A DNA stretch of 22,595 nucleotides from an uncultured Clostridium sp. (GTDB lineage Bacteria; Bacillota_I; Bacilli_A; RF39; UBA660), in the NCBI GenBank assembly GCA_964555985.1, contig CAZKUP010000012.1:1-22595 (forward strand), written 5' to 3'. Shown piece by piece: positions 18-21,427 of the stretch. A program made the position numbers and the translations under genes. Position 1 is the first letter of the stretch; every line of letters begins with the position of its first letter. The notes below the pieces were generated by a model that was not told the origin of the DNA, did no database searches, and worked only from the letters and a program-made list of their open reading frames with translations.

Positions 18-359
18 TGGTGGAACCGAGGAGATTCGAACTCCTGTCCGAAAATATAGCTATATAAATATCTACAAACTTAGTTTATTTATAATTTTTA
101 TTAGAAACATAAAAATAAACAAATAGATTTCTAACTAGATTAGTATTTATTCATCATTTTTACTAATCATCAAATGATATATCCTGCTTTATTAAGCCTA
201 AGATATTCGTCACAGGAAAACAAATATTTAGACTGCCTTCTATTCTTAAGCGAAAGCTAATTGATTTCTGTTTCCAGTTATTTTTATTTTTGGAATTAAC
301 GCATGCCAACGGTTTGCAATTTATACTCTAATATTCCCGTCGAAACCAAAAACGGTCCC
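18..359 (-). ncRNA. ssrA: tmRNA (transfer-messenger RNA, SsrA)
   Basis: Reverse complement begins GGGACCGUUUUUGGUUUCGACGGG (tRNA-like 5' acceptor with G3:U wobble). It ends ...GGACAGGAGUUCGAAUCUCCUCGGUUCCACCA (T-arm plus acceptor 3' strand plus CCA). It lies immediately downstream of smpB, as is usual in Firmicutes. Tentative tag frame after AUAACU: GGA AAC AGA AAU CAA UUA GCU UUC GCU UAA, giving (A)GNRNQLAFA. Confidence 0.8.
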
Positions 360-365
360 ATAATT

Positions 366-400
366 AAATTATAACAAAAAAAACTAATATTTCATAGTCT
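366..400 (-). promoter_or_regulatory. putative ssrA promoter (extended -10 TGTTATAAT ~7 nt upstream of tmRNA 5' end)
   Basis: Minus-strand TGTTATAAT at 369-377, directly upstream of the GGGACCG 5' end of the tmRNA. The -35 element would fall within the smpB 3' end. Confidence 0.35.
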
Positions 401-818
401 TTTTATTAAATTTATCTATATCTCTTTCTTTTAGAACTTGCTTTTTATCATAATTCTTTTTACCCTTTGCAACACCAATAAGTATTTTTGCAAGTCCATT
501 TTTTATATATAATTTAATGGGAATAAGAGTATATCCTTCAATATTTAGCTTATCTCTCATTTTATATATTTCATTTTTATGTACTAAAAGTTTTCTAGTG
601 CGATCTTCTTCATGACTAAATATACCACTATTCTCATATTTAGATATATGCATATTTAAAATATATAATTCATTATTTTTTATAATTCCATAACTATCTT
701 TCAAATTTGCTTTACCCATTCTTATTGATTTTATTTCACCACCAGTAAGAACTATTCCACACTCATAAGTATCTTCAATAAAATAATCAAACTTTGCTTT
801 TCTATTTAATATTTCCAT
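384..818 (-). CDS. smpB: SsrA-binding protein SmpB
   Basis: Protein MEILNRKAKFDYFIEDTYECGIVLTGGEIKSIR... is typical SmpB. Start moved to ATG 816-818 (RBS GGTGA); the tracked TTG at 828-830 is unlikely. Adjacent to the tmRNA gene. Confidence 0.85.
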   Translation of the reverse strand: MEILNRKAKFDYFIEDTYECGIVLTGGEIKSIRMGKANLKDSYGIIKNNELYILNMHISKYENSGIFSHEEDRTRKLLVHKNEIYKMRDKLNIEGYTLIPIKLYIKNGLAKILIGVAKGKKNYDKKQVLKERDIDKFNKKTMKY

Positions 819-819
819 G

Positions 820-1980
820 CTAGTCACCAATTGAATAGAAATTAATTTTTAAATCATTCGAAGATAATAATGTTTTATATTTTTTATAATATGATTTATA
901 ATTTACTAACTCATTTGTTAATTTTGTAAAAGGTATTACTTTATAATCTGTACTATTATTATTATATGCATATGTAAATAATACACTTATATTTTCAAAT
1001 GAAACCTTTTTCTCTGTATTAGATTTAGTTATTTTTAAATCAAAATCAACCATTGCACTTACTCTTGAATCAATTGCATAATGCCCTGATAATAAGTTTC
1101 CTAGTGAATAACATACTAAAGTATTATTAATCATTTCAATAGGTTGTATTGTGTATCCAGTATTACCAACTACAATATCTACTCCCAAACCTGATAAATA
1201 TGTTGCAATTCTTTTTTGTTCTTCTGAAACAGTTTGTTTATCATATGCATCTAATACATTTCCACCACTATAATCTATACTTACCATGATTATATCTACT
1301 AAATCTTTAATACTCTCAACATCACTTTTTACAAGTTCATCACTATAAATATCAACAGCAAAAGCATTTTGTACTATTTCATCAGTTGCAGTTGTATAAG
1401 ATAAAAGTGCAATTTTAATACCATTTTTTTCAATTATATTATTTTTTAGTCTATTTTCTTCTGAATCATTAACTCCTGCATAAATATATTTGTTATTAGA
1501 AATTGTTTCAATAGTACTTTTTATTCCTGCAAGGCCTTTATCATATGCATGATATGAGCCAAGTGACATTGCATTAAATCCTAATTTTGATAATGATTTA
1601 ATTGTATCTTCTGGTGTATTATAACTATAATTATAACTTGTACCTGCTTCAGCTCCAGCAACTATACTTTGTTCAAAATAGAAATTTACATCTGATTTTT
1701 TCATAATATCATTTAAATCTGAAAATACTTTATCAAAATCATATCCATCACTAGTTTTAGTATCATACCACATATTGCTATTAATTAATACATTTCCACC
1801 TAATGTAAATGTAGTTGAATATACTTTATCTTTTGGATTTTCTTTTTCAAGTATGTCCGCATTAGTATCTTCTTTTTCCTTTAGAAAATACCCTCTAAAT
1901 AAATATAATGACCCAAATATACCTACAATAAGTAGCAATAATATTATAAATGGTGCCTTTTTAATTTTCTTCTTTTTCAT
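820..1980 (-). CDS. CapA/PGA_cap-family (metallophosphatase-like) membrane-anchored protein
   Basis: N-terminal TM segment. The rest of the body resembles the CapA poly-gamma-glutamate synthesis family (…SLGSYHAYDKGLAGI…GVDIVVGNTGYTIQPIE…). Sits between rnr and smpB. Confidence 0.55.
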   Translation of the reverse strand: MKKKKIKKAPFIILLLLIVGIFGSLYLFRGYFLKEKEDTNADILEKENPKDKVYSTTFTLGGNVLINSNMWYDTKTSDGYDFDKVFSDLNDIMKKSDVNFYFEQSIVAGAEAGTSYNYSYNTPEDTIKSLSKLGFNAMSLGSYHAYDKGLAGIKSTIETISNNKYIYAGVNDSEENRLKNNIIEKNGIKIALLSYTTATDEIVQNAFAVDIYSDELVKSDVESIKDLVDIIMVSIDYSGGNVLDAYDKQTVSEEQKRIATYLSGLGVDIVVGNTGYTIQPIEMINNTLVCYSLGNLLSGHYAIDSRVSAMVDFDLKITKSNTEKKVSFENISVLFTYAYNNNSTDYKVIPFTKLTNELVNYKSYYKKYKTLLSSNDLKINFYSIGD

Positions 1981-4072
1981 CTTTTACCTCCATTTTATTA
2001 ATAACCTCAAAATCAATTATTCCTTCTACTTTAGATGCATTAATACATTTTACATATATTATATCACCCAATCTATATCTTTTACCACTTCTTTTTCCTA
2101 CTATACTTTGACTAAATTCATCAACTATATAATAATCACCCTTTAAAGCAGAAACATGGACTCTACCTTCAATTCTATTTTCAAGTCTTACAAACATACC
2201 AGAAGGCACGACACTTTGTACTTTAGCAACAAACTCTTCTCCTATATGCTCTTGCATATATTCTGCCATTTTCATATCATCAACATCTCGTTCACATTCA
2301 ATTGCATTTCTTTCTTTTAAAGAAGAATGTTCTGCCTCTTTTTCTAATTTCTTAGATAAATGTACTAAGTCAAATGTACTTAGATTATCACCATGTAAAA
2401 TACTTTTTAAGACCCTATGAACTGTATCATCTGGATATCTTCTAATTGGACTTGTAAAATGGCAATAACATTTACTAGCAAGGCCATAGTGCCCCATATT
2501 TTCTATACTATAAACCGCTTTTTGCATAGACCTAAGTCCAAGTTCTGATACCATTTCATAATCTTTTTCATCTTTTAAACTAAGAAGTAATTCCTGCATT
2601 TGTTTAGGCTTAAATTCATTAATTTTACCCTTTATTTTAATTTTATGACCAAGAGCACTTAAAACACTAAAATATTCTCTTAATTTCTTTTCCCTAGGTA
2701 TTTCATGAATACGATACATCATAGGATAATCTAAAGAAGTTATATATTCTGCAACACATTCATTAGCAGCAATCATAAAGTCCTCAATTAATTTTTCTCC
2801 TGTACCTCTTTCTCTTTCTTTTATTTCTATAGGTTTACATTCTTCATCAACAATTATTTTAATTTCAGGAACATCAAAATTAATTTGACCTCTATCATCT
2901 TTTCTTTTTCTTAATATTTCAGACAATTCTTTCATTAAGTCAAGTTCATGAGTAAAATCTTCATATCCTTCTGAAACTATTCCCTCTTCTAAATACATAT
3001 TTGCTTTTTTGTAAGTCATTCTTAGTTTAGAATTTATAACTGCTTCATATATATCGAATCTAACTAATTTACCATTTGGATCATATTCCATATCACATGA
3101 CATTGTAAGTCTATCTACATGTGGATTAAGTGAACATATACCATTAGATAATTGATGTGGAAGCATTGGAATTACTCTATCAACAAGATATACACTTGTT
3201 GCTCTTTCTTCTGCATCTCTATTAAGTGCAGTTCCTTCTTTAACATAATGAGTTACATCTGCAATATGCACTCCAAGTAGATAATTACCATTATCAAGAA
3301 CATCAATATATATAGCGTCATCAAAGTCTTTCGCATCATCACCATCCATAGTAATAATCTTTTTATCTCTTAAATCTCTTCTTCCAACAATTTCATCATC
3401 AGTAACTTCAAGAGGAAGATTCTTTATTTCCTCCATTGTTTCATCAGTAAAATTTGGTTCTATATCATGTTCATATACTTTAGATAATATATCAATACCA
3501 ACATCATCCTTATGGCCTAATATCTTAATAACCTCACCATAATATTTATTTTTAGATACCTCAGCATAAGGTTTAACAATTACCTTATGACCAGGCATTG
3601 CATTATTTCTATGATGCTCATCTATTAATATTGTTAATTTTATTCTCTCATCATCAAGAATAATTTTACCACAATCTTTATCTAAGACAAATTCACCAAT
3701 AATTGTATCAAAAGACCTATCAAGTATTTTAATAATCTTTCCTTCTTCACTAGAAATGTATTCACATGCTACTAAATCATTGTGTATAGCGCCATTTAAG
3801 TTTTCTTTTTTAATATGTATATCTGGCTCATTTGACAAGATAACAAATCCAAATCCCTTTTTATTCACAGATAACTTACCTACTTTTAAATGTGTATTTT
3901 CATATAATGTATATTTATTTTTTTTAGTAACATATACATCTCCACATTTTTCAAGTGTTCTAAGTTCACTACATAAGCTATCTAAGGAAGCATTATTTAA
4001 CTTACTTTGTATTTCAAGTTCAGTAAGTGGAATTTCACTTTTTTTAAGTACATCTAAAATTTCTTCTCTCAT
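1961..4072 (-). CDS. rnr: ribonuclease R (RNB-family 3'-5' exoribonuclease)
   Basis: 703 aa with N-terminal HTH/cold-shock region, RNB catalytic core (…DGDDAKDFDDAIY…) and C-terminal S1 domain. Strong RBS AGGAGG. The secG-rnr-smpB-ssrA synteny is conserved. Confidence 0.9.
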   Translation of the reverse strand: MREEILDVLKKSEIPLTELEIQSKLNNASLDSLCSELRTLEKCGDVYVTKKNKYTLYENTHLKVGKLSVNKKGFGFVILSNEPDIHIKKENLNGAIHNDLVACEYISSEEGKIIKILDRSFDTIIGEFVLDKDCGKIILDDERIKLTILIDEHHRNNAMPGHKVIVKPYAEVSKNKYYGEVIKILGHKDDVGIDILSKVYEHDIEPNFTDETMEEIKNLPLEVTDDEIVGRRDLRDKKIITMDGDDAKDFDDAIYIDVLDNGNYLLGVHIADVTHYVKEGTALNRDAEERATSVYLVDRVIPMLPHQLSNGICSLNPHVDRLTMSCDMEYDPNGKLVRFDIYEAVINSKLRMTYKKANMYLEEGIVSEGYEDFTHELDLMKELSEILRKRKDDRGQINFDVPEIKIIVDEECKPIEIKERERGTGEKLIEDFMIAANECVAEYITSLDYPMMYRIHEIPREKKLREYFSVLSALGHKIKIKGKINEFKPKQMQELLLSLKDEKDYEMVSELGLRSMQKAVYSIENMGHYGLASKCYCHFTSPIRRYPDDTVHRVLKSILHGDNLSTFDLVHLSKKLEKEAEHSSLKERNAIECERDVDDMKMAEYMQEHIGEEFVAKVQSVVPSGMFVRLENRIEGRVHVSALKGDYYIVDEFSQSIVGKRSGKRYRLGDIIYVKCINASKVEGIIDFEVINKMEVKDEKEEN

Positions 4073-4100
4073 AGCATTCCTCCTATTATTATTATAGAAT

Positions 4101-4131
4101 AAAAAAAGACTTATAAAAAGTCTTTTTTTAA
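4101..4131. terminator. bidirectional rho-independent terminator between secG and rnr
   Basis: AAAAAAAGACTTATAAAAAGTCTTTTTTT is a perfect hairpin flanked by A and T runs. Confidence 0.7.
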
Positions 4132-4141
4132 AAATATTTAA

Positions 4142-4354
4142 TTAAAGTGACATAATTAGGGCAATTACCATAAAAACAGCACCTAAAACAGCAGTTAATC
4201 TGGTAATAAATAATTCCCCGCCTCTTTCTTTTCTTTTATTAAATAAATCAGAACTACCTCCGCCTAAGCCTTGAGATGCTCCTTCTGCTTTAGCACTTTG
4301 TAATAAAACAATAGCAATAAGCAATATTGATACAATTATAATTAATGTTTCCAT
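4142..4354 (-). CDS. secG: preprotein translocase subunit SecG
   Basis: 70-aa protein with two TM helices and a glycine-rich loop (GASQGLGGGSSDLF). RBS AAGGTGA. Conserved position upstream of rnr. Confidence 0.85.
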   Translation of the reverse strand: METLIIIVSILLIAIVLLQSAKAEGASQGLGGGSSDLFNKRKERGGELFITRLTAVLGAVFMVIALIMSL

Positions 4355-4428
4355 TTCATCACCTTCGTTAATACTTTACCATATAATTATTGATTTTTCA
4401 ATGATATAATGAACATTTTTTATTTTTT

Positions 4429-4447
4429 ATATCAAACATATGTTTGT
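4429..4447. promoter_or_regulatory. 19-bp palindromic operator-like motif ATATCAAACATATGTTTGT (copy 1, secG upstream region)
   Basis: An identical 19-mer recurs at 15560-15578. The core CAAACATATGTTTG is a perfect palindrome, close to the Firmicutes LexA/Cheo box CGAACATATGTTCG (GAAC to AAAC). Confidence 0.4.
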
Positions 4448-5382
4448 CATTCTAAATCTAATATATCTCTCCAATTAACAGGAAAACCTATTTCATCTAG
4501 TATTGTTTCAAGAGTAATACTATCTATCTTACCATCAAGAGCATCCACCTCATATCCTAGTTCGTAAATAAGAAGTCTAAAATCATCCTTACTAAGCATA
4601 TATTTAAACATTATAACTAATGAATATAAATCATTCGTACCATATATATATTCCTCATTATAAATAGGAATATTTAACTTATGATGATATATATTATTTG
4701 GTATACCTCTTTGTGTTTTATGATTATAAAGTATATCTTCATGAGCACAAAGATTTCTATAATTTGACATTATAGGTAAAAATATACTTAAATCTTCCTC
4801 ATTAATTCCATAATACTTTGCAATTTCAATCTTATCCTCATGTTTTAAAATATTATATAACTCACTTAATATTCCAAAAGATAAAACTTTTACTAATATC
4901 CACATAGGTATATAACCATAATTTGTTAAATAATGAAGTGTTGCAGTATGTTGTTTAGCATTAACTCTTATTTGCCTTTTCATTTTATTTATTACATCTG
5001 CTACTTGTCTATGTTTAGATATATTTGTATCAAAATTTGACATTTTTAAATAATCTTTTTCCTTATAACCATATTTACTTGACAAATGATAACTAAAGAT
5101 AGATTTTAAATTGTTTTCCACAATTAATAAATATTTAAACATAATATTTCTTAAATTTCTATCAAATGAAAACAATGCATACAATTCATCAAATGTTGCT
5201 CCATCTATAAATCTTTTATTTTCTCCATCTTTCATAAATATATGTCTATATCCATTTATAAAAAAGTAATTTTCTCTTAACAAAATACTTTTAGTCTTAT
5301 CATAATCATTAATAATTAAGCCCTTATCTTTTAATATTTCTATTTGTTCTTCAATAGTTTTAAATTGTTTTACACGCCCCAT
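4447..5382 (-). CDS. abortive infection protein, Abi_2 (AbiD/AbiD1/AbiF) family
   Basis: N-terminal …FKTIEEQIEILKDKGLII…ENYFFINGYRHIF…FDELYALFSFDRNLRNIMFKYLLIVENNLKSIFSYHL… matches the conserved Abi_2 N-terminal region as recalled. Confidence 0.8.
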   Translation of the reverse strand: MGRVKQFKTIEEQIEILKDKGLIINDYDKTKSILLRENYFFINGYRHIFMKDGENKRFIDGATFDELYALFSFDRNLRNIMFKYLLIVENNLKSIFSYHLSSKYGYKEKDYLKMSNFDTNISKHRQVADVINKMKRQIRVNAKQHTATLHYLTNYGYIPMWILVKVLSFGILSELYNILKHEDKIEIAKYYGINEEDLSIFLPIMSNYRNLCAHEDILYNHKTQRGIPNNIYHHKLNIPIYNEEYIYGTNDLYSLVIMFKYMLSKDDFRLLIYELGYEVDALDGKIDSITLETILDEIGFPVNWRDILDLE

Positions 5383-5510
5383 AAATATACATCTCCTATT
5401 ATAAGTATATCATATGATATGCATTTTTTTCTAATAAAAAAAAATTTATGTAAAGTTTTTAGGGGAAAAGCAGTTAGTTTTAGAGTATTTAATATATAGG
5501 AGGTGAAATA

Positions 5511-5576
5511 ATGATCGAGTTTATTAGATTTATTATTTATGTTATTTGGGAATATTTTGATTATAAGAAAAGATAG
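5511..5576 (+). CDS. 21-aa hydrophobic/aromatic small peptide (MIEFIRFIIYVIWEYFDYKKR) with near-consensus SD
   Basis: TAGGAGGTGAaataATG RBS, unusual in an AT-rich intergenic region. Divergent from abi and followed immediately by a perfect hairpin terminator. Not in the ORF track because it is too short. Confidence 0.4.
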   Translation: MIEFIRFIIYVIWEYFDYKKR

Positions 5577-5592
5577 AAGACTTAGTCTTCTA
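5576..5592. terminator. bidirectional hairpin terminator (AGAAGAC-TTA-GTCTTCT)
   Basis: Perfect 7-bp stem with 3-nt loop, T-rich on both sides. It terminates both the small ORF (plus strand) and the nuclease gene (minus strand). Confidence 0.6.
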
Positions 5593-6280
5593 TTTTGCTA
5601 CTTCCATCCTTGTAATTAATACTTATTCCATCTTGCACATTATAAACATATACATTAAACTCAATACCTTCTCCATTATCTTCAATAGAATACCCTTCCA
5701 TAATAACGCCACTAGCAAGTAAATTATCTTCTTGATATATAGGTGTTACTCTATAAAGCACATGATTATGTGTTTTTTTTATGTAACTTGCAATCTTATT
5801 TTCATATTCAAGCATCACACTTGTATTCATTTGTCTAGTACATGTAATTAAATTCTTTTCAAAAGCGTTCTTTCCTGTCAATTGATATCCAATTAAATGA
5901 CATCTATTATATAAATATTTACCTTCAATATTATCATATTTTGCTTGATTCCAACCACTAGGTTTAATCATACCAATACTTTTTCTATCTTCTTTCGGCA
6001 TTAATTCTTCTCCTAAACAAGCACTTACCTTGCCTGCTCTTCCAAGAAAATCAAGTTCACTATAATATTCATACGAAGTATTAGGTAAATTATCATAATC
6101 AAATAAAGGTTTATTATTATTTAAAATTACAAAAGAAAACCCTCTATATTCCGGAATATTAGATATATCATATGTTTCATCTTGAGAATCATATATTGTT
6201 TTATCTTTATCAATATTATAATAATACATTGCTATAAAAAAAGTTATAACTGCTATAATTAAACTTACTATTTTTTTCAT
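5582..6280 (-). CDS. membrane-anchored extracellular DNA/RNA non-specific endonuclease (DNA-entry-nuclease-like)
   Basis: N-terminal TM anchor. Conserved …GWNQAKY…NRCHLIGYQLTG… block resembles the His-Me finger non-specific nuclease family (NucA/EndA-like). Confidence 0.55.
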   Translation of the reverse strand: MKKIVSLIIAVITFFIAMYYYNIDKDKTIYDSQDETYDISNIPEYRGFSFVILNNNKPLFDYDNLPNTSYEYYSELDFLGRAGKVSACLGEELMPKEDRKSIGMIKPSGWNQAKYDNIEGKYLYNRCHLIGYQLTGKNAFEKNLITCTRQMNTSVMLEYENKIASYIKKTHNHVLYRVTPIYQEDNLLASGVIMEGYSIEDNGEGIEFNVYVYNVQDGISINYKDGSSKIED

Positions 6281-6340
6281 TCTATCACTACCTAATTAAA
6301 TTTTATCTAAAAACAATATTTTAGTAAATACTCTTTTTAA

Positions 6341-6997
6341 TTATTTTACATAATATCTAATAAGTGCATCATTTATAACTTGTGCTATTTTATCTTGATA
6401 ACTTGAAGTAATAAGTTTGTTTCTTTCATTTGGATTAGATATAAAACCAACTTCTAATAATAACCCCATTTTATTTATATTTTTATACATATACAAATCA
6501 TTTATTTCCTTTATCTTTCTATTACTATTTAATTTTTTATTAAATTCCTCTTGAAAAATTTTAGCAATACTTTCATTATCCTTATTTATATCATCATAAA
6601 ACACTTGAGCACCTTTCCATGATGAATTTAAAGATGAATTTAAATGAATAGACAAATACACATCCGCGTCACTTTCATTTATTAACTTTGCCCTATTTGC
6701 TAAATCACTTCTTTTTCTTAAAGAAACATTTTTACTAGACAAATCATAATCACCATCTCTTGTAATATACACAATCCCACCATTACTTTCTAGCTTCTTC
6801 TTTAACTTTAAAGTAATACTTAAGTTTATATCTTCTTCATATATATCTTTATAATATGCGCCCGGATCTATACCACCATGTCCAGGATCTAAATAAATAA
6901 CCCTTCCTAAAAGAGGAACATCATTTATAAATGCATTTACTTTATCAATTATACACACTAATAAAATAAAAATAATAAACATCTTTAATTTATACAT
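6341..6997 (-). CDS. cwlD: N-acetylmuramoyl-L-alanine amidase (Amidase_3), CwlD-like germination-specific amidase
   Basis: Signal/TM N-terminus. VIYLDPGHGGIDPGA…ADVYLSIHLNS…LLEVGFISNPNE are Amidase_3 hallmarks. Size (218 aa) fits CwlD. Confidence 0.75.
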   Translation of the reverse strand: MYKLKMFIIFILLVCIIDKVNAFINDVPLLGRVIYLDPGHGGIDPGAYYKDIYEEDINLSITLKLKKKLESNGGIVYITRDGDYDLSSKNVSLRKRSDLANRAKLINESDADVYLSIHLNSSLNSSWKGAQVFYDDINKDNESIAKIFQEEFNKKLNSNRKIKEINDLYMYKNINKMGLLLEVGFISNPNERNKLITSSYQDKIAQVINDALIRYYVK

Positions 6998-7083
6998 ATT
7001 TCCACCTAATTAATTATATTTATTTACATAAGAAAAAGACTTATGATAAGTCCTTTTTCACAAATACAAATATTTTACTTAAT
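6893..7083. repeat. direct repeat copy 1 (cwlD 5' ~105 nt + RBS/promoter + upstream terminator + last 27 nt of GtrA-like ORF)
   Basis: Near-identical to 8239-8405 (~103 nt 100% identical at the 3' side). Copy 2 carries a 12-nt and a 7-nt deletion and one substitution in the cwlD-derived part. Confidence 0.85.
7032..7059. terminator. hairpin terminator GAAAAAGACTTATGATAAGTCCTTTTTC (inside repeat copy 1)
   Basis: Imperfect ~11-bp stem with T-run. The same sequence in copy 2 (8352-8379) overlaps the stop region of the GtrA-like ORF. Confidence 0.55.
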
Positions 7084-7137
7084 TTGCTACATTATACACT
7101 ATAATCCCAAATAGTGTACTTTTACCTGATTCCATTA

Positions 7138-7857
7138 TTACATTATATTTTTCATTAAAATTAATCGTATGACTTTAATAATATATAATATTTCAATAGT
7201 TTTCTTTAACTCATTAGAACAATAAATATTTATATATTCTAATCTTTCTTCTTCACTTAAACCTTTACTATTATTCTTAAACATATCTCCTAATTTTTTG
7301 TAATTTCCATTAATACTTTCATGACTGGCAATAATCATATCCATCTTAGATACATTTGTAAGGTCTAAATATATGCCATTTATTTTAGCAAGTGATTCTA
7401 TAAATACTCTTTGACTTCTACCATTACCTTCACGAAAAGGATGTAAAGCATTAATATCAGCAAATAATTCTACTAATTTATCTAGTGTTGTTTCATTATC
7501 ATAATCTACAAAGTATTTTTCTTTTTTTAACTTGCTAAATACATCATTGCCAAATGATTCTATATGCTCTGTTAAACAGAATAAATCTTGTTTAGCAATA
7601 TTACAGTTTCTTATATCTCCAGCCCATCTATAAACATCTTGAAATAAATATTTATGAATATCTTTTAAATATTTAAAGTCAAAATTACCTTTTAATGGTT
7701 TTTCGTTTAATTCTAAAGTTCTTAAAGATACAAGTTCTCTTTCAGCATTAAATAAATCTTCATCATTAGTAATATTTAATTTATTAATTAAAACATCAGT
7801 TCCTTTATAACAATAATCTGCAGTTCTTTCATAAGTATATTTATATTTATTATCCAT
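7138..7857 (-). CDS. fic: Fic-family protein (class I Fic toxin, adenylyltransferase-type FIC motif)
   Basis: Canonical FIC motif HPFREGNGRSQR. No internal (S/T)xxxE(G/N) inhibitory motif was seen. An 8-nt overlap with the upstream small ORF suggests translational coupling. Confidence 0.8.
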   Translation of the reverse strand: MDNKYKYTYERTADYCYKGTDVLINKLNITNDEDLFNAERELVSLRTLELNEKPLKGNFDFKYLKDIHKYLFQDVYRWAGDIRNCNIAKQDLFCLTEHIESFGNDVFSKLKKEKYFVDYDNETTLDKLVELFADINALHPFREGNGRSQRVFIESLAKINGIYLDLTNVSKMDMIIASHESINGNYKKLGDMFKNNSKGLSEEERLEYINIYCSNELKKTIEILYIIKVIRLILMKNIM

Positions 7858-8041
7858 AAATTCCTCTATACTTTTCTATAACTTTTCTACGTTCTATTTC
7901 AGTTGTTGACTTTCCAGTTATACAATTATAAAGTTTTTGTTTTATTTCTTTAGTTAGTGGCATTCCCTCTTGTGCCATAGCACCATCAACTTTTTTTATT
8001 TTTTCTTGTATTTCTTTTTCAGTTTGCTTTTTATTACTCAT
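7850..8041 (-). CDS. putative Fic antitoxin (VbhA/FicA-like small inhibitory protein)
   Basis: 63 aa and helical. Contains AMAQEG, which resembles the (S/T)xxxE(G/N) inhibitory motif. It precedes fic and overlaps it. An extended -10 TGGTATAAT lies upstream on the minus strand at 8078-8086. Confidence 0.55.
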   Translation of the reverse strand: MSNKKQTEKEIQEKIKKVDGAMAQEGMPLTKEIKQKLYNCITGKSTTEIERRKVIEKYRGIYG

Positions 8042-17502: not shown

Positions 17503-17736
17503 CTATTTTTCCTTTTTAATAGATTCTTTATATGCATTTAAACCAATTTTACCAATTAATCCTAACGACAAAACAATTAATGGAGCAATTACTGAAGCAG
17601 CAACACCTAAATTTTTAGATAATACATTTGATAAAAATGCAACAACAAAGAACTTAGTAATTTCGACATGTGTTTTAAGTTCCTTAATGTCATCTTTATA
17701 TTTTTCATCTTCTAAGATAAATTTATCAAATTCCAT
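17503..17736 (-). CDS. 77-aa small membrane protein (acidic N-terminus, C-terminal hydrophobic helix/helices)
   Basis: …ITKFFVVAFLSNVLSKNLGVAASVIAPLIVLSLGLIGKIG… It is the last gene of the tightly spaced protease trio. Confidence 0.55.
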   Translation of the reverse strand: MEFDKFILEDEKYKDDIKELKTHVEITKFFVVAFLSNVLSKNLGVAASVIAPLIVLSLGLIGKIGLNAYKESIKKEK

Positions 17737-17747
17737 TTTATACTTCT

Positions 17748-17936
17748 TTAAATAATCTTTTTTTCACTACCACCAAATGTAGCAGTATGTTCAGTACCTG
17801 TTACATGTATCCATACATCTATCGCTTCTTCTTCTGAATATTCTTTAAGTAAATCTTTTATTAAGTTTTGTTGAAACAATTCTAATGTTTCAAGCAAATC
17901 TTCTATTTTATAATTTTCTAATTCTTGTATTTCCAT
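17748..17936 (-). CDS. 62-aa acidic helical protein (unknown; candidate inhibitor/adaptor)
   Basis: RBS AGGAGAA inside the protease 3' end. Its ATG lies 2 nt after the protease stop. 16 acidic residues (14 E, 2 D) of 62 (~26%). Confidence 0.5.
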   Translation of the reverse strand: MEIQELENYKIEDLLETLELFQQNLIKDLLKEYSEEEAIDVWIHVTGTEHTATFGGSEKKII

Positions 17937-17938
17937 TG

Positions 17939-18601
17939 TTATTCTCCTATCATATCTTTAATGTATTCAGCTGATACACATTGAGTGGTTTGATGTAATT
18001 CCCTTGGATTAATTCCTCCTAAAGAAATTCCAGATGTTGGAGAAAACGCCCCAATCAAAACCCCTATTATTTTATTTTTTTCCTTTGAATAAATAACTGA
18101 ACCTGATTGTCCGGGTCTTGTTTGAGTATTTATAACACAATATTTAGATTTTATACCGGAACTATTTAAAAGAATCTTTGCACCTATGTGTGCTTTTTGC
18201 ATTGTTAATACTTTTCTTCCTTCTACACAATGTGGAAAACCAAATATATAAATCTCATCTCCAACATTTATTTCATCTGTATTTCCAATTGGAATTGTAG
18301 GAAAATTATATTCTATTTTATCCACAAACTCTAAAATTGCTAAATCTCTAAACGGATCACTATATTTTATTTTCAATTTTGAATATGAGCATTGATTAAT
18401 TGTTGTATCCTGATATTCATTAAATGAATTTATAGTAGGAATAATCATGACTAACCCATCATCATTATCTCCAATAACATGCCTCGGTGTAACAATACAA
18501 TTCACATTTTTTATAGCAAAACCAGTTCCTAACATTTCGATTTCATTTTCGTTACGTATTCTTCCTATTACATATACAAGTTGCGTCATTATATCTACCA
18601 T
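17939..18601 (-). CDS. cytoplasmic trypsin-like (S1/chymotrypsin-fold) serine protease
   Basis: No signal peptide. Catalytic-triad context TPRHVIG (His), DLAILEF (Asp), TRPGQSGSVIY (GxSGG-like Ser). RBS GGATAGGATGTGA. 32 nt downstream of the methyltransferase stop. Confidence 0.7.
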   Translation of the reverse strand: MVDIMTQLVYVIGRIRNENEIEMLGTGFAIKNVNCIVTPRHVIGDNDDGLVMIIPTINSFNEYQDTTINQCSYSKLKIKYSDPFRDLAILEFVDKIEYNFPTIPIGNTDEINVGDEIYIFGFPHCVEGRKVLTMQKAHIGAKILLNSSGIKSKYCVINTQTRPGQSGSVIYSKEKNKIIGVLIGAFSPTSGISLGGINPRELHQTTQCVSAEYIKDMIGE

Positions 18602-18633: not shown

Positions 18634-19872
18634 TTAATTTTCATCAGCTATAATATTTTCTATTTCTTCTCCAATTTTTTCAATAACTCCAACTACTAGA
18701 GCATTTCCCATCATAAAGTTTCTTTTCTTTTCAGTCATACCTGTATTTGTCCAATTGTCTGGAAATCCATTGATTCTTTCACATTCAACAGGGGTTAATA
18801 ATCTAGGTTTCTTAGTTTTATAATCCTCTATAACATGTGTTGTTCTACTTACTCCACCTTCACTAGTAAGCATTGTTCTAGCTGGAGCATCTAAATTATC
18901 TGGAAATGGCATAGCACCTTCACAATAATTATAAGGGTCTCCATTAGGTTTAATTCTAGGAATCTTCTTACTACCTTTTAAGAATGCAAATTTTTCAATT
19001 TGTGCATCTGTTAAAAAGTATTTTTTATCAACTTCTTGTTCTTCTCTAATTTTTCTTAATGGATATATTAAATTATAATCTGCTTTAGTTTTAACTGTAT
19101 AAATTCCACCATCATGCATAACTCCAGCATTATAAAATTCGCATTTAAAGTTATTACTTACATCAATTAAATCTTTATATTCTGAAATACTTGATTTAGT
19201 AATTGCATGATATTGATTTTCGATTGGAAATTGTTTAACAAATATCCCTTCTTCAAATATTAAATCTCTATCATTTATGTTTTTCATTTTCTTATAATAA
19301 TTAGTTGATTTATGATAAGCGAATATATAAATTCTTCTTCTTTTTTGTGGAAGTCCATATTCTCCAGCATTAATAACTCTCCACTCAACATCATAACCAT
19401 TTTCATAGAAACTTCTTAAAATCATTCCAAAATCTCTACCTCTTTGTTTGGCAGGAGATAATAATAATCTATCAACATTTTCTAGTAATACAAATGGAGG
19501 TTGTTTTACTGCAAGTATTTCTTCAATAGCCCACCATAAAACACCTTTTTTACCTTCAATACCTTTACTATTAGATAACGTTTGAGCTACTGAATAATCT
19601 TGACATGGAAATCCACCCACTAATAATGTGTGGTTAGGAATTTCTTTTTTATCAACTTCAAATATATCTACATTGCTAACATCATCAAAACCGAATCTTG
19701 TACCATAACAATTATAAGCATCTTGTGTTTTTGTAGATGGTTCCCATTGATTAGCCCATACAAATTCCCAATTACCATTTTCTTCTACTTTATCATTATC
19801 TAATGAAACTTTATTTAAACCGCATCTAAAACCACCGACACCAGCGAATAATTCCACACAAGTCTTTTTCAT
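18634..19872 (-). CDS. DNA (cytosine-5)-methyltransferase, Sau3AI-methylase-like (predicted GATC-specific m5C MTase)
   Basis: Motif I ELFAGVGGF, motif IV GGFPCQDYS, motif VI ENV, WANQWEPS block. 412 aa. RBS GGAGG. Divergent from a MutH/Sau3AI-like endonuclease gene. Confidence 0.8.
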   Translation of the reverse strand: MKKTCVELFAGVGGFRCGLNKVSLDNDKVEENGNWEFVWANQWEPSTKTQDAYNCYGTRFGFDDVSNVDIFEVDKKEIPNHTLLVGGFPCQDYSVAQTLSNSKGIEGKKGVLWWAIEEILAVKQPPFVLLENVDRLLLSPAKQRGRDFGMILRSFYENGYDVEWRVINAGEYGLPQKRRRIYIFAYHKSTNYYKKMKNINDRDLIFEEGIFVKQFPIENQYHAITKSSISEYKDLIDVSNNFKCEFYNAGVMHDGGIYTVKTKADYNLIYPLRKIREEQEVDKKYFLTDAQIEKFAFLKGSKKIPRIKPNGDPYNYCEGAMPFPDNLDAPARTMLTSEGGVSRTTHVIEDYKTKKPRLLTPVECERINGFPDNWTNTGMTEKKRNFMMGNALVVGVIEKIGEEIENIIADEN

Positions 19873-19910
19873 TTTGTACCTCCTGTTTATTGTTAAATAA
19901 CACTAATTAT

Positions 19911-19982
19911 ATTATAATATAATTGATTGAAAAGATCAACCTTACCAGAGAATATTATACTAAATTTCTTGGTAAAGATCAA
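19911..19982 (-). promoter_or_regulatory. two tandem near-consensus promoters for the MTase, each TTGATC-N17-TATAAT, with GATC inside each -35
   Basis: Minus-strand −35 elements at 19977-19982 and 19934-19939 (both TTGATC), with −10 elements at 19954-19959 and 19911-19916 (both TATAAT). A third GATC at 20027-20030 lies in the endonuclease 5' UTR. Confidence 0.5.
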
Positions 19983-20044
19983 CTTTTCTATATAAATATT
20001 TTATATTATTTTTTTGATAAAAACAAGATCGAAAGGAGAAATTT

Positions 20045-21427
20045 ATGAAAAAAGGAAGACATTATTCAGAAACTGAAATTAGAATACTAGCTCAATCCGT
20101 AATCGGTAAAACTTTTAATGAAATCAAAGAGTATGAAATTGTTTCAATAGACGATTCAAAGATTCAAAAAGGTTCCTTAGGTGGAATAATAGAAGAAGCA
20201 TTATATGGTATTGAACCTAATGGTGAATCAGAACCAGATTTTATAGATGCAGGAATTGAATTAAAAGTAACACCATATAAGAAAAATAAAGACAATACTT
20301 TATCTGCAAAAGAAAGACTTGTATTAAATATGATTGACTTCATGACAGAATATAAAAATGAATTTAAATCAAGTCATTTCTGGTTTAAAAATAATAGACT
20401 TGAAATAATATGGTACATGCATGAAGATAATAAAGATAAATATGAATTTAAAATTACAAATGAATTACTATTAGATTTATCATTAAGCGAAGATATTAAA
20501 CAAATAGAAAAAGATTTCTATGTAATTACAAATAAAATTAAAGAAGGCAAAGCTCACGAATTATCAGAAGCAGATACAATGTATTTAGGTGCATGTACTA
20601 AAGGTGCTAATTCTAATGATGTAAGACAACAACCATTTAATGATTTACCAGCAAAACGAAGAGCTTTCTGTTTTAAATCTTCATATATGACACAATTAGT
20701 AAGAAAATATATTGGAGATTATTCTAATGTTGAAAAAGTATTAAAAGGTACTGATAAGACATTTAATGAATTTATAGAAAGTGTTGTTAACAAATATAAA
20801 GGAAAAACTCAAAAAGAATTAATGAATGAATATGGACTTGAATCAACTGCTAAAAATTTAAATAATATGTTAATTAGTAGAATGTTTAAAGTTAAAAGTA
20901 AGTTAGCAGAAACAGAAGAATTCCAAAAAGCTAAGATTATTCCTAAAACAATTAGAATAGAAGAAAATGGAAGAATTAAAGAATCAATTTCTTTCCCTTA
21001 TTTTAAATATACAGAATTAGTAAATCAAGATTGGGAAACTTCTGATTTAAAGGAAGAACTTGAAACAACTAAATATATGTTCTTTGTGTTCAAAATGGAA
21101 AATGGAGAGTATGTATTTAAAGGTATTAAATTATGGAATATGCCTGAGTTAGATATTGAAACATCTGTAATGGAAATGTGGAAGAAAACATATAATACTA
21201 TTAAAAGTGGAAATATTGTTAAATCAATAGAGAATGGATATAGAACTACTAATTTCGTAGGCATGAGTGAAAATTTAGTTTGTCATGTGAGACCTCATGG
21301 AAGAAATGCGCAAGATACTTGTAAATTACCTGTACCTGATAAATTAACAGGAGCTACAGAATACACAAAACATTGTTTTTGGATTAATAGTTCTTATATT
21401 AGAGAAATATTTAATGAATACATTTAA
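20045..21427 (+). CDS. type II restriction endonuclease, Sau3AI/MutH-like family (predicted GATC)
   Basis: N-terminal domain aligns to MutH blocks (KGSLGGIIEEALYG…EPDF…GIELKVTPY…ERLVL, versus MutH KGWIGVLLEIWLG…EQDF…GVELKTIP). 460 aa, like Sau3AI-family enzymes. RBS AAAGGAGA. Confidence 0.7.
   Translation: MKKGRHYSETEIRILAQSVIGKTFNEIKEYEIVSIDDSKIQKGSLGGIIEEALYGIEPNGESEPDFIDAGIELKVTPYKKNKDNTLSAKERLVLNMIDFMTEYKNEFKSSHFWFKNNRLEIIWYMHEDNKDKYEFKITNELLLDLSLSEDIKQIEKDFYVITNKIKEGKAHELSEADTMYLGACTKGANSNDVRQQPFNDLPAKRRAFCFKSSYMTQLVRKYIGDYSNVEKVLKGTDKTFNEFIESVVNKYKGKTQKELMNEYGLESTAKNLNNMLISRMFKVKSKLAETEEFQKAKIIPKTIRIEENGRIKESISFPYFKYTELVNQDWETSDLKEELETTKYMFFVFKMENGEYVFKGIKLWNMPELDIETSVMEMWKKTYNTIKSGNIVKSIENGYRTTNFVGMSENLVCHVRPHGRNAQDTCKLPVPDKLTGATEYTKHCFWINSSYIREIFNEYI

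Follow-up and report, generated by a model that had tools for sequence, protein, structure and literature searches.

Beletskaya in 2000 and Zakharova in 2004 are said to have traced control of the restriction-modification (R-M) system CfrBI to methylation of the system's own recognition site in a shared promoter region. Here we analyze a comparable arrangement: a 172-bp divergent control region (positions 19873–20044) that separates the methylase gene (M, minus strand) and the endonuclease gene (R, plus strand) of a Sau3AI-type R-M pair on a 22,595-nt contig of an uncultured Clostridium sp. (CAZKUP010000012.1; the whole stretch is referred to as the window). We consider it rather likely, though well short of certain, that this region acts as a self-contained promoter-methylation switch similar to that of CfrBI, with 5-methylcytosine (m5C) sensed at the methylase promoters.

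In CfrBI, from Citrobacter freundii plasmid pZE8, the target lies in the -35 element of the M promoter, and its methylation shifts RNA polymerase to the R promoters (Gibhardt, 2025, preprint; reviewed in PMC12707154). LlaDII and AhdI also have target sites in the M promoter and a negatively autoregulated methylase, and only the methylase gene is affected (reviews including PMC12707154). Symmetric bidirectional promoters of bacteria (Warman, Grainger) have a palindromic -10 element, diverging starts, and mutually exclusive RNA polymerase binding when one side is strong (PMC12825309). For the regulation of any Sau3AI-family system, we found no description in the searchable literature.

The locus in the window shares with CfrBI divergent M and R genes, the lack of a C protein, and an own site in the M -35; its M and R promoters are predicted to overlap and compete, as those of CfrBI do, and the predicted logic, in which methylation would lower M and raise R, is also that of CfrBI. 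CfrBI has one site and one M promoter, makes N4-methylcytosine (m4C), recognizes CCWWGG, and resides on a proteobacterial plasmid. The window, in contrast, has three GATC sites, three predicted tandem M promoters (PM1, PM2, and PM3, the last with its site abutting the hexamer), and C5-methylcytosine as the predicted mark. It further differs in that the predicted R promoter (PR) is on the far side, shares a palindromic -10 with PM1, and would produce a long leader that contains the convergent PM2 and PM3, and the cassette hosts are low-GC Bacillota or Mollicutes. Autoregulation of the methylase by promoter methylation would be common to this locus and to LlaDII and AhdI; the geometry in the window would also couple PM to PR. 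The order M gene, PR, PM, R gene with facing promoters that interfere with each other is that of Ecl18kI and SsoII, and a corresponding geometry is predicted for PM2 and PM3 versus PR and for the most distant relatives (L074–L079, see below). However, the regulatory C5-methylases of Ecl18kI and SsoII bind their operator via a ~70-aa N-terminal helix-turn-helix, which the window methylase lacks, and the signal proposed here is the methyl mark. PR and PM1 resemble a symmetric bidirectional promoter, but one arm's -35 holds a methylatable target, which would make the choice of direction epigenetic. In enzyme families, sizes (412–414 and 460–463 aa), and predicted GAT(m5C) mark, the pair is like Sau3AI of S. 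aureus, DCM2/R.DCM2 of M. hominis, and the system of Mesomycoplasma hyorhinis; unlike in the window, both M. hyorhinis genes point the same way and the region upstream of dcm is free of GATC.

A Sau3AI-family endonuclease and a C5-cytosine methylase

The endonuclease gene (20045–21427, plus strand) encodes 460 aa that match the NCBIfam equivalog NF040973, 'Sau3AI family', with 495 bits (cutoff 300) over residues 9–456. Residues 16–454 align full-length with Sau3AI (PDB 4pxg, E 3.7e-72). The N-terminal catalytic domain is MutH-like (Pfam MutH, E 2e-29), the C-terminal half matches the Sau3AI C-terminal domain entries PDB 2reu and 7xm0 (E 1e-28), and none of the aligned homologues departs from the D...E-x-K catalytic residues D65, E72, and K74. 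A curated model above its cutoff, together with MutH-like and C-terminal effector domains, places the enzyme in the Sau3AI family. The methylase gene (18634–19872, minus strand) encodes a 412-aa C5-cytosine DNA methyltransferase, predicted to yield GAT(m5C), that matches PF00145 over residues 4–405 (E 1.4e-63) and TIGR00675 with 242 bits; motifs I, IV (PCQ), VI (ENV), VIII (QxRxR), and X (GNA) are visible in its translation. It is 52% identical over its full length, including the variable region, to the M. hyorhinis dcm that adjoins a Sau3AI-family gene. M. hyorhinis has a characterized GATC-specific m5C methylase, Mhy3 (PMC4636357), which may be the compared dcm. M. hominis strains with a 414-aa dcm (DCM2) and a 463-aa Sau3AI homologue (R.DCM2) carry GAT(m5C) (PMC10305163), and the product of M.Sau3AI is likewise GAT(m5C) (PMC3287169).

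To place the pair among its relatives, we scanned species-representative genomes, which yielded 333 tblastn-confirmed endonuclease relatives; the best 80 were fetched, giving 65 distinct loci including the window (64 others, endonuclease 44–78% identical). In the 456 kb that flank these 65 cassettes, GATC is the lowest of 256 tetramers, with an observed/expected ratio (O/E) of 0.27 under a second-order Markov model; the next lowest, GGCC, has an O/E of 0.60. Because the enzyme belongs to the Sau3AI family and GATC is the most under-represented tetramer in cassette-bearing genomes, we predict GATC as the cleavage target of the cassette and GAT(m5C) as its protected form. An initial annotation of this DNA had proposed a Sau3AI-type pair with GATC specificity; the equivalog match, the 4pxg alignment, and the C5-methylase domain establish the pair, and family membership and GATC avoidance back the specificity.

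In M. hyorhinis NCTC10121 (L081, 1552–2981), the Sau3AI-family endonuclease is annotated as two overlapping open reading frames (ORFs). This gene is probably disrupted, and the adjoining methylase may therefore be an orphan.

GATC is clustered in the control region

GATC occurs three times in the control region (19934–19937, 19977–19980, and 20027–20030), where a first-order Markov model expects 0.37 (Poisson P for three or more ~0.006), close to the ~0.4 that the initial annotation had given as the chance value. Against the background rate of the window itself (11 sites in 22.4 kb) the expectation falls to 0.084, and P to ~1e-4. Over the whole window GATC is found 14 times versus 45.9 ± 6.0 in dinucleotide shuffles, all 100 of which are higher; it is the most depleted 4-bp palindrome (O/E 0.30), so that it is avoided elsewhere and enriched here. 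Neither the methylase gene nor the endonuclease gene contains a single GATC. The cluster is real and far from chance.

Other palindromes are under-represented in the window as well (ACGT, O/E 0.40; AGCT, 0.41; GGCC, 0.48), which may reflect other restriction systems in the host. In the pooled flanks of all loci, GATC alone is strongly depleted.

Each GATC lies at the -35 element of a predicted methylase promoter

We predict four sigma-A-type promoters in the control region, one for the endonuclease and three for the methylase. PR (19890–19918, plus strand) adjoins the methylase gene and consists of -35 TTGTTA (19890–19895), a 17-bp spacer, and -10 TATAAT (19913–19918). It is the sole conserved plus-strand promoter of the region, and its predicted start at ~19925 would give a leader of ~120 nt. 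On the minus strand, PM1 (19939–19911) combines -35 TTGATC (19939–19934), which contains the GATC at 19934–19937, with -10 TATAAT (19916–19911) and a predicted start at ~19904. PM2 (19982–19954) is a duplicate unit, with TTGATC at 19982–19977 (GATC at 19977–19980), TATAAT at 19959–19954, and a predicted start at ~19947. In PM3 (20030–19998) the GATC at 20030–20027 abuts a -35 TTGTTT (20026–20021), followed by -10 TAAAAT (20003–19998) and a predicted start at ~19991. All three PM spacers are 17 bp. The GATC thus occupies -35 positions 3–6 in PM1 and PM2 and lies flush against the -35 in PM3 (GATCTTGTTT), so that, as in CfrBI, the own recognition site is located at or within the -35 of every methylase promoter.

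The two TTGATC-N17-TATAAT promoters named in the initial annotation are present and conserved across loci, but the count of two gave way to three with the addition of PM3. Similarly, the position of the third GATC in the endonuclease 5' untranslated region holds, and the same site also abuts the -35 of PM3, which is conserved in 60 of the 65 loci.

PR and PM1 overlap in a perfect 20-nt palindrome with the halves AATTATATTA and TAATATAATT (19905–19924, both strands), which contains the overlapping -10 elements of PR (plus strand) and PM1 (minus strand). We predict that this palindrome is a bidirectional promoter core from which starts diverge. The two TTGATC promoter units form a tandem 43-nt direct repeat (19909–19951 and 19952–19994, 72% identical). 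The predicted endonuclease leader contains PM2 and PM3, both of which are convergent with PR.

The ribosome-binding site (RBS) of the methylase, AGGAGGT (19878–19884, minus strand), is read from the sequence and falls in a block conserved in the alignment. That of the endonuclease, GGAG (20035–20038, plus strand), lies within the conserved block AAAACAAGATCGAAAGGAG.

A plus-strand promoter close to the endonuclease gene, with ATATTTTA read as a weak TATTTT, was considered and rejected: it has no -35, and the corresponding block of distant relatives is a -10 on the minus strand alone (TATATT, TATACT, TATAGT). Because the -10 block of L074–L079 reads as a promoter on the minus strand only, we assign PM3 to that strand.

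The stretch 19938–19976 contains an inverted repeat, TTACCA...TGGTAA. The homologous stretch of many of the loci L001–L080 likewise contains an inverted repeat that flanks or includes the PM2 -10, with sequences that differ by locus. The stretch between the first and second GATC has a mean folding z of -1.3 (38 sequences) versus -0.5 and +0.1 for control stretches. The repeat may be a weak leader hairpin or AT-rich noise. RNA structure in the endonuclease leader was rejected as a candidate, as RNAalifold returned neither a consensus structure nor covarying pairs.

The promoter architecture is conserved across a large family

The relatives are mostly metagenome-assembled genomes (MAGs) from gut and rumen labelled Bacilli, Mollicutes, Tenericutes, or Clostridia. 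Nearly all encode a methylase (57–89% identical) divergently upstream of the endonuclease (44–78%), across an intergenic gap of ~170 bp or ~127 bp. Of the 65 distinct loci, 60 have PR, in the form TTGnnn-N17-TATAAT, adjacent to the methylase gene. One or two copies of the minus-strand TTGATC-N17-TATAAT (exact ATTATA-N17-GATCAA) are found in 60 loci, with two copies in 29, and the PM3 pattern, GATC-TTGnnn-N17-TAnnnT beside the endonuclease gene, is again found in 60 of 65. The promoter spacers are essentially always 17 bp.

We aligned 47 distinct two-unit control regions (endonucleases 54–78% identical) and scored column-wise identity to the window. The footprint comprises TTG of PR at 19890–19892 (100%), the palindromic 14-nt core TATATTATAATATA that forms the -10 block of PR and PM1 (97%), the first and second copies of AAAGATCAAC at PM1 and PM2 (98% and 95%), ATTATA of the second unit, the PM2 -10 (99%), ATATTTTA, the PM3 -10 block (97%), and AAAACAAGATCGAAAGGAG (94%); the blocks of PM3 are 94–97% conserved. 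The intervening spacers reach 44–60%. This pattern points to strong purifying selection on the control region across a large family.

In the most distant loci, L074–L079 (44–49% identity), the TTGATC units are missing and PM3 is the sole type of methylase promoter. These loci retain GATC fused to a minus-strand -35, e.g. GATC-TTGAAT-N17-TATATT, and also have a plus-strand extended -10 promoter (TGnTATAAT) beside the methylase gene. One-unit regions are nested among two-unit relatives: the endonuclease of L027 is 98.7% identical to those of L023 and L024, and further one-unit/two-unit pairs are L032/L030 (97%), L036/L007 (85%), and L060/L061 (84%). This nesting implies repeated gain or loss of the 43–44-bp TTGATC unit, probably through recombination at the 10-bp AAAGATCAAC repeats. 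Five loci (L013, L029, L041, L049, and L051) have A instead of G after the third GATC (AAGATCAAAAG), which creates an extra minus-strand TTGATC that overlaps PM3.

GATC itself is under selection

The conservation of promoters in general does not account for that of GATC. Positions 4–6 of the PR -35 drift (TTGTTA, TTGTCT, TTGTAT, TTGTGA, and others; 69% conserved), whereas the non-consensus ATC of TTGATC in PM1 and PM2 is ~98% conserved. PM3 conserves its GATC beyond the hexamer, at positions that an ordinary promoter leaves free to vary. The control regions contain 14.9 GATC per kb (155 observed vs 19.9 expected), 23 times the 0.64 per kb of the remainder of these loci (293 observed vs 1110 expected). 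TTGATC is not a host-typical -35, because it accounts for only one of 50 TTGnnn-N17-TATAAT matches in the host flanks; the control regions contain 89 TTGATC promoter units. Together, these comparisons indicate selection on GATC beyond promoter function.

Decayed sites read GATT (10), AATC (3), and TATT (1), the changes expected from C-to-T at the methylated cytosine on either strand. This spectrum fits deamination of m5C and is supportive only. In the flanks there is no genome-wide deamination footprint, as GATT and AATC are not over-represented (O/E 1.01).

The cassette carries no other recognizable regulator

The genes that flank the pair in the window are essentially absent beside the pair in other loci. 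Since flanking genes are not shared, we regard the pair as an autonomous mobile cassette whose control is self-contained. No small helix-turn-helix controller ORF was found in or beside the cassette, and with two genes, unshared flanks, and a control region devoid of any plausible ORF, the cassette indeed appears to manage without a C protein, as had been suggested. Small ORFs in the control region were dismissed as mechanical TTG/GTG ORFs of 20–41 aa that cross indel-rich spacers. A neighboring 104-aa ORF gave a sub-threshold NikA-like match and is absent from other loci, so it was rejected as a controller. A regulatory methylase of the SsoII/Ecl18kI type was set aside as well: motif I (FAGVGG) is found as early as residue 9 of 412, which leaves no N-terminal regulatory domain, and no ~70-aa helix-turn-helix precedes it. 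Rfam searches of 19700–20200 detected no known RNA family, and we found no close DNA relative of the cassette in phage and plasmid collections.

A model for the proposed switch

In the model that we favor, RNA polymerase would fit the common -10 of PR and PM1 in one orientation at a time. On unmethylated DNA, as in a new host, the PM promoters would be fully active and methylase would be produced, while PR would be kept low by polymerase competing for the shared -10 and by PM2 and PM3 transcribing against it. Once GATC is methylated, the major groove at the -35 would carry 5-methyl groups, one of them on the template-strand cytosine paired with G of TTG, and these would weaken binding of sigma-A. 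Methylase transcription would then drop to a maintenance level, and PR would be released to allow production of endonuclease. We infer the transcription starts, the methylation effect, and its direction; the effect has precedents in CfrBI and LlaDII, and its sign, by which methylation would lower M and raise R, would follow from CfrBI and from logic, because with the reverse sign the endonuclease would stay locked off. At the level of sequence comparison, methylation-dependent control, the central idea of the initial annotation, is well supported as a prediction.

GATC-bearing promoters outside the cassette family

Beyond the 65 loci, more distant plasmid systems have convergent genes, and a TTGATC promoter lies upstream of dcm in one of two. 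In Clostridium tagluense plasmid pCM008-D (L083, ~4015–4130), GTTGATCTT-N-TATAAT with a 17-bp spacer is located upstream of dcm, next to convergent R and M genes; this relative would resemble the M-only version of LlaDII and AhdI. It suggests that the GATC-bearing methylase promoter predates the divergent gene layout. No GATC was found upstream of dcm in Priestia pBEH1 (L082) or in M. hyorhinis (L081); the GATC-promoter feature is not universal in the Sau3AI family.

One 164-kb phage contig has exact copies of TATATTATAAT-N12-AAAGATCAAC at three separate sites, and related IMG/VR contigs contain the motif too (L084–L090, from UViG_3300029705_000040, 3300018494_002777, and 3300018493_000117; e.g. 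L084 1652–1684, L085 2483–2515, and L090 4743–4775). Each copy lies ~30 nt upstream of an RBS and ATG of a hypothetical phage gene, and the extended consensus of the copies is AATAGTTGATCTTTT...TATAATATAATATA. The contigs carry no R-M cassette and do not avoid GATC. The motif could be a strong host-type promoter, a product of promoter exchange between phage and cassette, or a means for the phage to read host GATC methylation.

Alternative explanations

Several observations weigh against a methylation switch. Start sites, methylation, and expression at these loci, which come from uncultured organisms, are predictions from sequence. That m5C at a -35 affects sigma-A is an assumption, the CfrBI mark being m4C, and an effect on sigma is less obvious for PM3, whose GATC lies outside the hexamer. 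The loci of Priestia pBEH1 and M. hyorhinis, both of the Sau3AI family, have no GATC upstream of the methylase gene, and a 24% GC genome favors C-to-T and G-to-A changes anyway, which is why the decay spectrum can be supportive only. Conservation extends beyond GATC and TTG to the 10-bp AAAGATCAAC, which could mark a protein-binding site. That protein might be one of the cassette's own: the methylase, or the endonuclease via one of two GATC-binding domains, could occupy the control-region GATC sites and sterically repress the PM promoters, as a repressor that needs no dedicated DNA-binding domain. The conserved block exceeds sigma contacts plus GATC, AAGATC is common to all three sites, regulatory methylases are a known class, and the PDB entries for the N- and C-terminal parts of Sau3AI represent two GATC-binding domains. 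We nevertheless think occupancy unlikely, although the present data would fit either model. With motif I at residue 9, the methylase has no counterpart of the SsoII/Ecl18kI N-terminal helix-turn-helix. In catalytic mode, a methylase should bind a fully methylated site only weakly, which would make for poor steady-state repression, and an endonuclease would cut the unmethylated site that it bound. A trans-acting host or phage factor that recognizes the 10–11 bp GTTGATCTTT(T), with the embedded GATC incidental or secondary, would also explain why the extended element is 95–98% conserved and why it recurs at three sites of the 164-kb phage contig with the shared extension AATAGTTGATCTTTT. Such a factor is very unlikely in our view: the cassette occurs in unrelated genomic contexts, in hosts labelled from Mollicutes to Clostridia, which argues against a dedicated host factor; PM3 and the distant relatives retain only GATCTTG, not the 10-bp block; and no regulator gene travels with the cassette.

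The PM elements could also be ordinary constitutive promoters in which TTGATC is merely a workable -35 and GATC accompanies promoter function with no part in sensing; the timing of endonuclease expression would then be set by geometry, with three promoters versus one and a long leader. The AT-rich window is rich in promoter-like hexamers (30 found vs 25.8 expected), and the extended motif, which precedes hypothetical genes in phage contigs that have no cassette and do not avoid GATC, can evidently work simply as a promoter. Yet constitutive promoters would leave unexplained the near-absence of TTGATC from promoter-like matches in host flanks, the invariance of ATC at -35 positions 4–6 against the drift in PR, and the retention of GATC outside the hexamer in PM3 and in the distant relatives; moreover, genomes that purge GATC elsewhere keep one to three copies here as potential self-substrates. 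This makes them quite an unlikely explanation. Potential self-substrates could be the very purpose of the cluster if the sites served self-targeting or addiction: once methylation is lost, cleavage would eliminate the cassette or plasmid or bring about post-segregational killing. Enzymes of the Sau3AI type loop DNA and require two sites, and three close sites would be a very good substrate for a two-site, two-domain enzyme. However, any chromosomal GATC would do for killing, and the fixed register of GATC with the -35 and 17-bp spacer in 60 of 65 loci would have no explanation; we judge self-targeting highly improbable. A promoter-methylation switch thus remains our preferred reading of the control region.

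Implications of promoter methylation as an R-M control strategy

A 2025 EcoSal review describes R-M control by methylation of the own promoter as logical but 'apparently rarely used' (PMC12707154); coupling of M and R by such control has been worked out for CfrBI alone. If the switch operates as proposed, a widespread cassette, with 333 matches in representative genomes and thousands of homologous proteins in metagenomes, uses this strategy. The strategy would also extend to 5-methylcytosine and to Gram-positive and Mollicute hosts. With its palindromic bidirectional core and modular set of one to three sensor promoters, the design would lend itself to studies of how m5C affects -35 recognition by sigma-A, and could provide synthetic biology with a compact, protein-free epigenetic switch. 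For annotation, the control region of this cassette family has a simple DNA signature.

More tentatively, and with more doubt than confidence, we suggest that the Sau3AI-type cassettes found in Bacillota and Mollicutes of the gut and rumen constitute a large natural family that reads its own m5C via one to three sensor promoters, and that this family would far exceed the handful of R-M systems known to read their own methylation. Release of the endonuclease would require methylation of every sensor, as in a multi-site AND gate or timer; gain or loss of units would tune the delay in establishment, and phages could use the same element to read GATC methylation of the host.

Genomic neighborhood of the cassette

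Downstream of the methylase gene and on the same strand, 17503–18601 encodes a trypsin-like peptidase (Trypsin_2, 220 aa) and ORFs of 62 and 77 aa; none of these adjoins the cassette in any other locus of the set. The window is chromosomal and begins with a tmRNA gene (18–359, minus strand), smpB, and the gene for RNase R, which are followed by genes for an Abi_2 protein (4447–5382), a non-specific endonuclease (5582–6280), an amidase, and a Fic protein (7138–7857). The stretch from 18 to 8000 looks like a small defense or accessory island beside the tmRNA locus.

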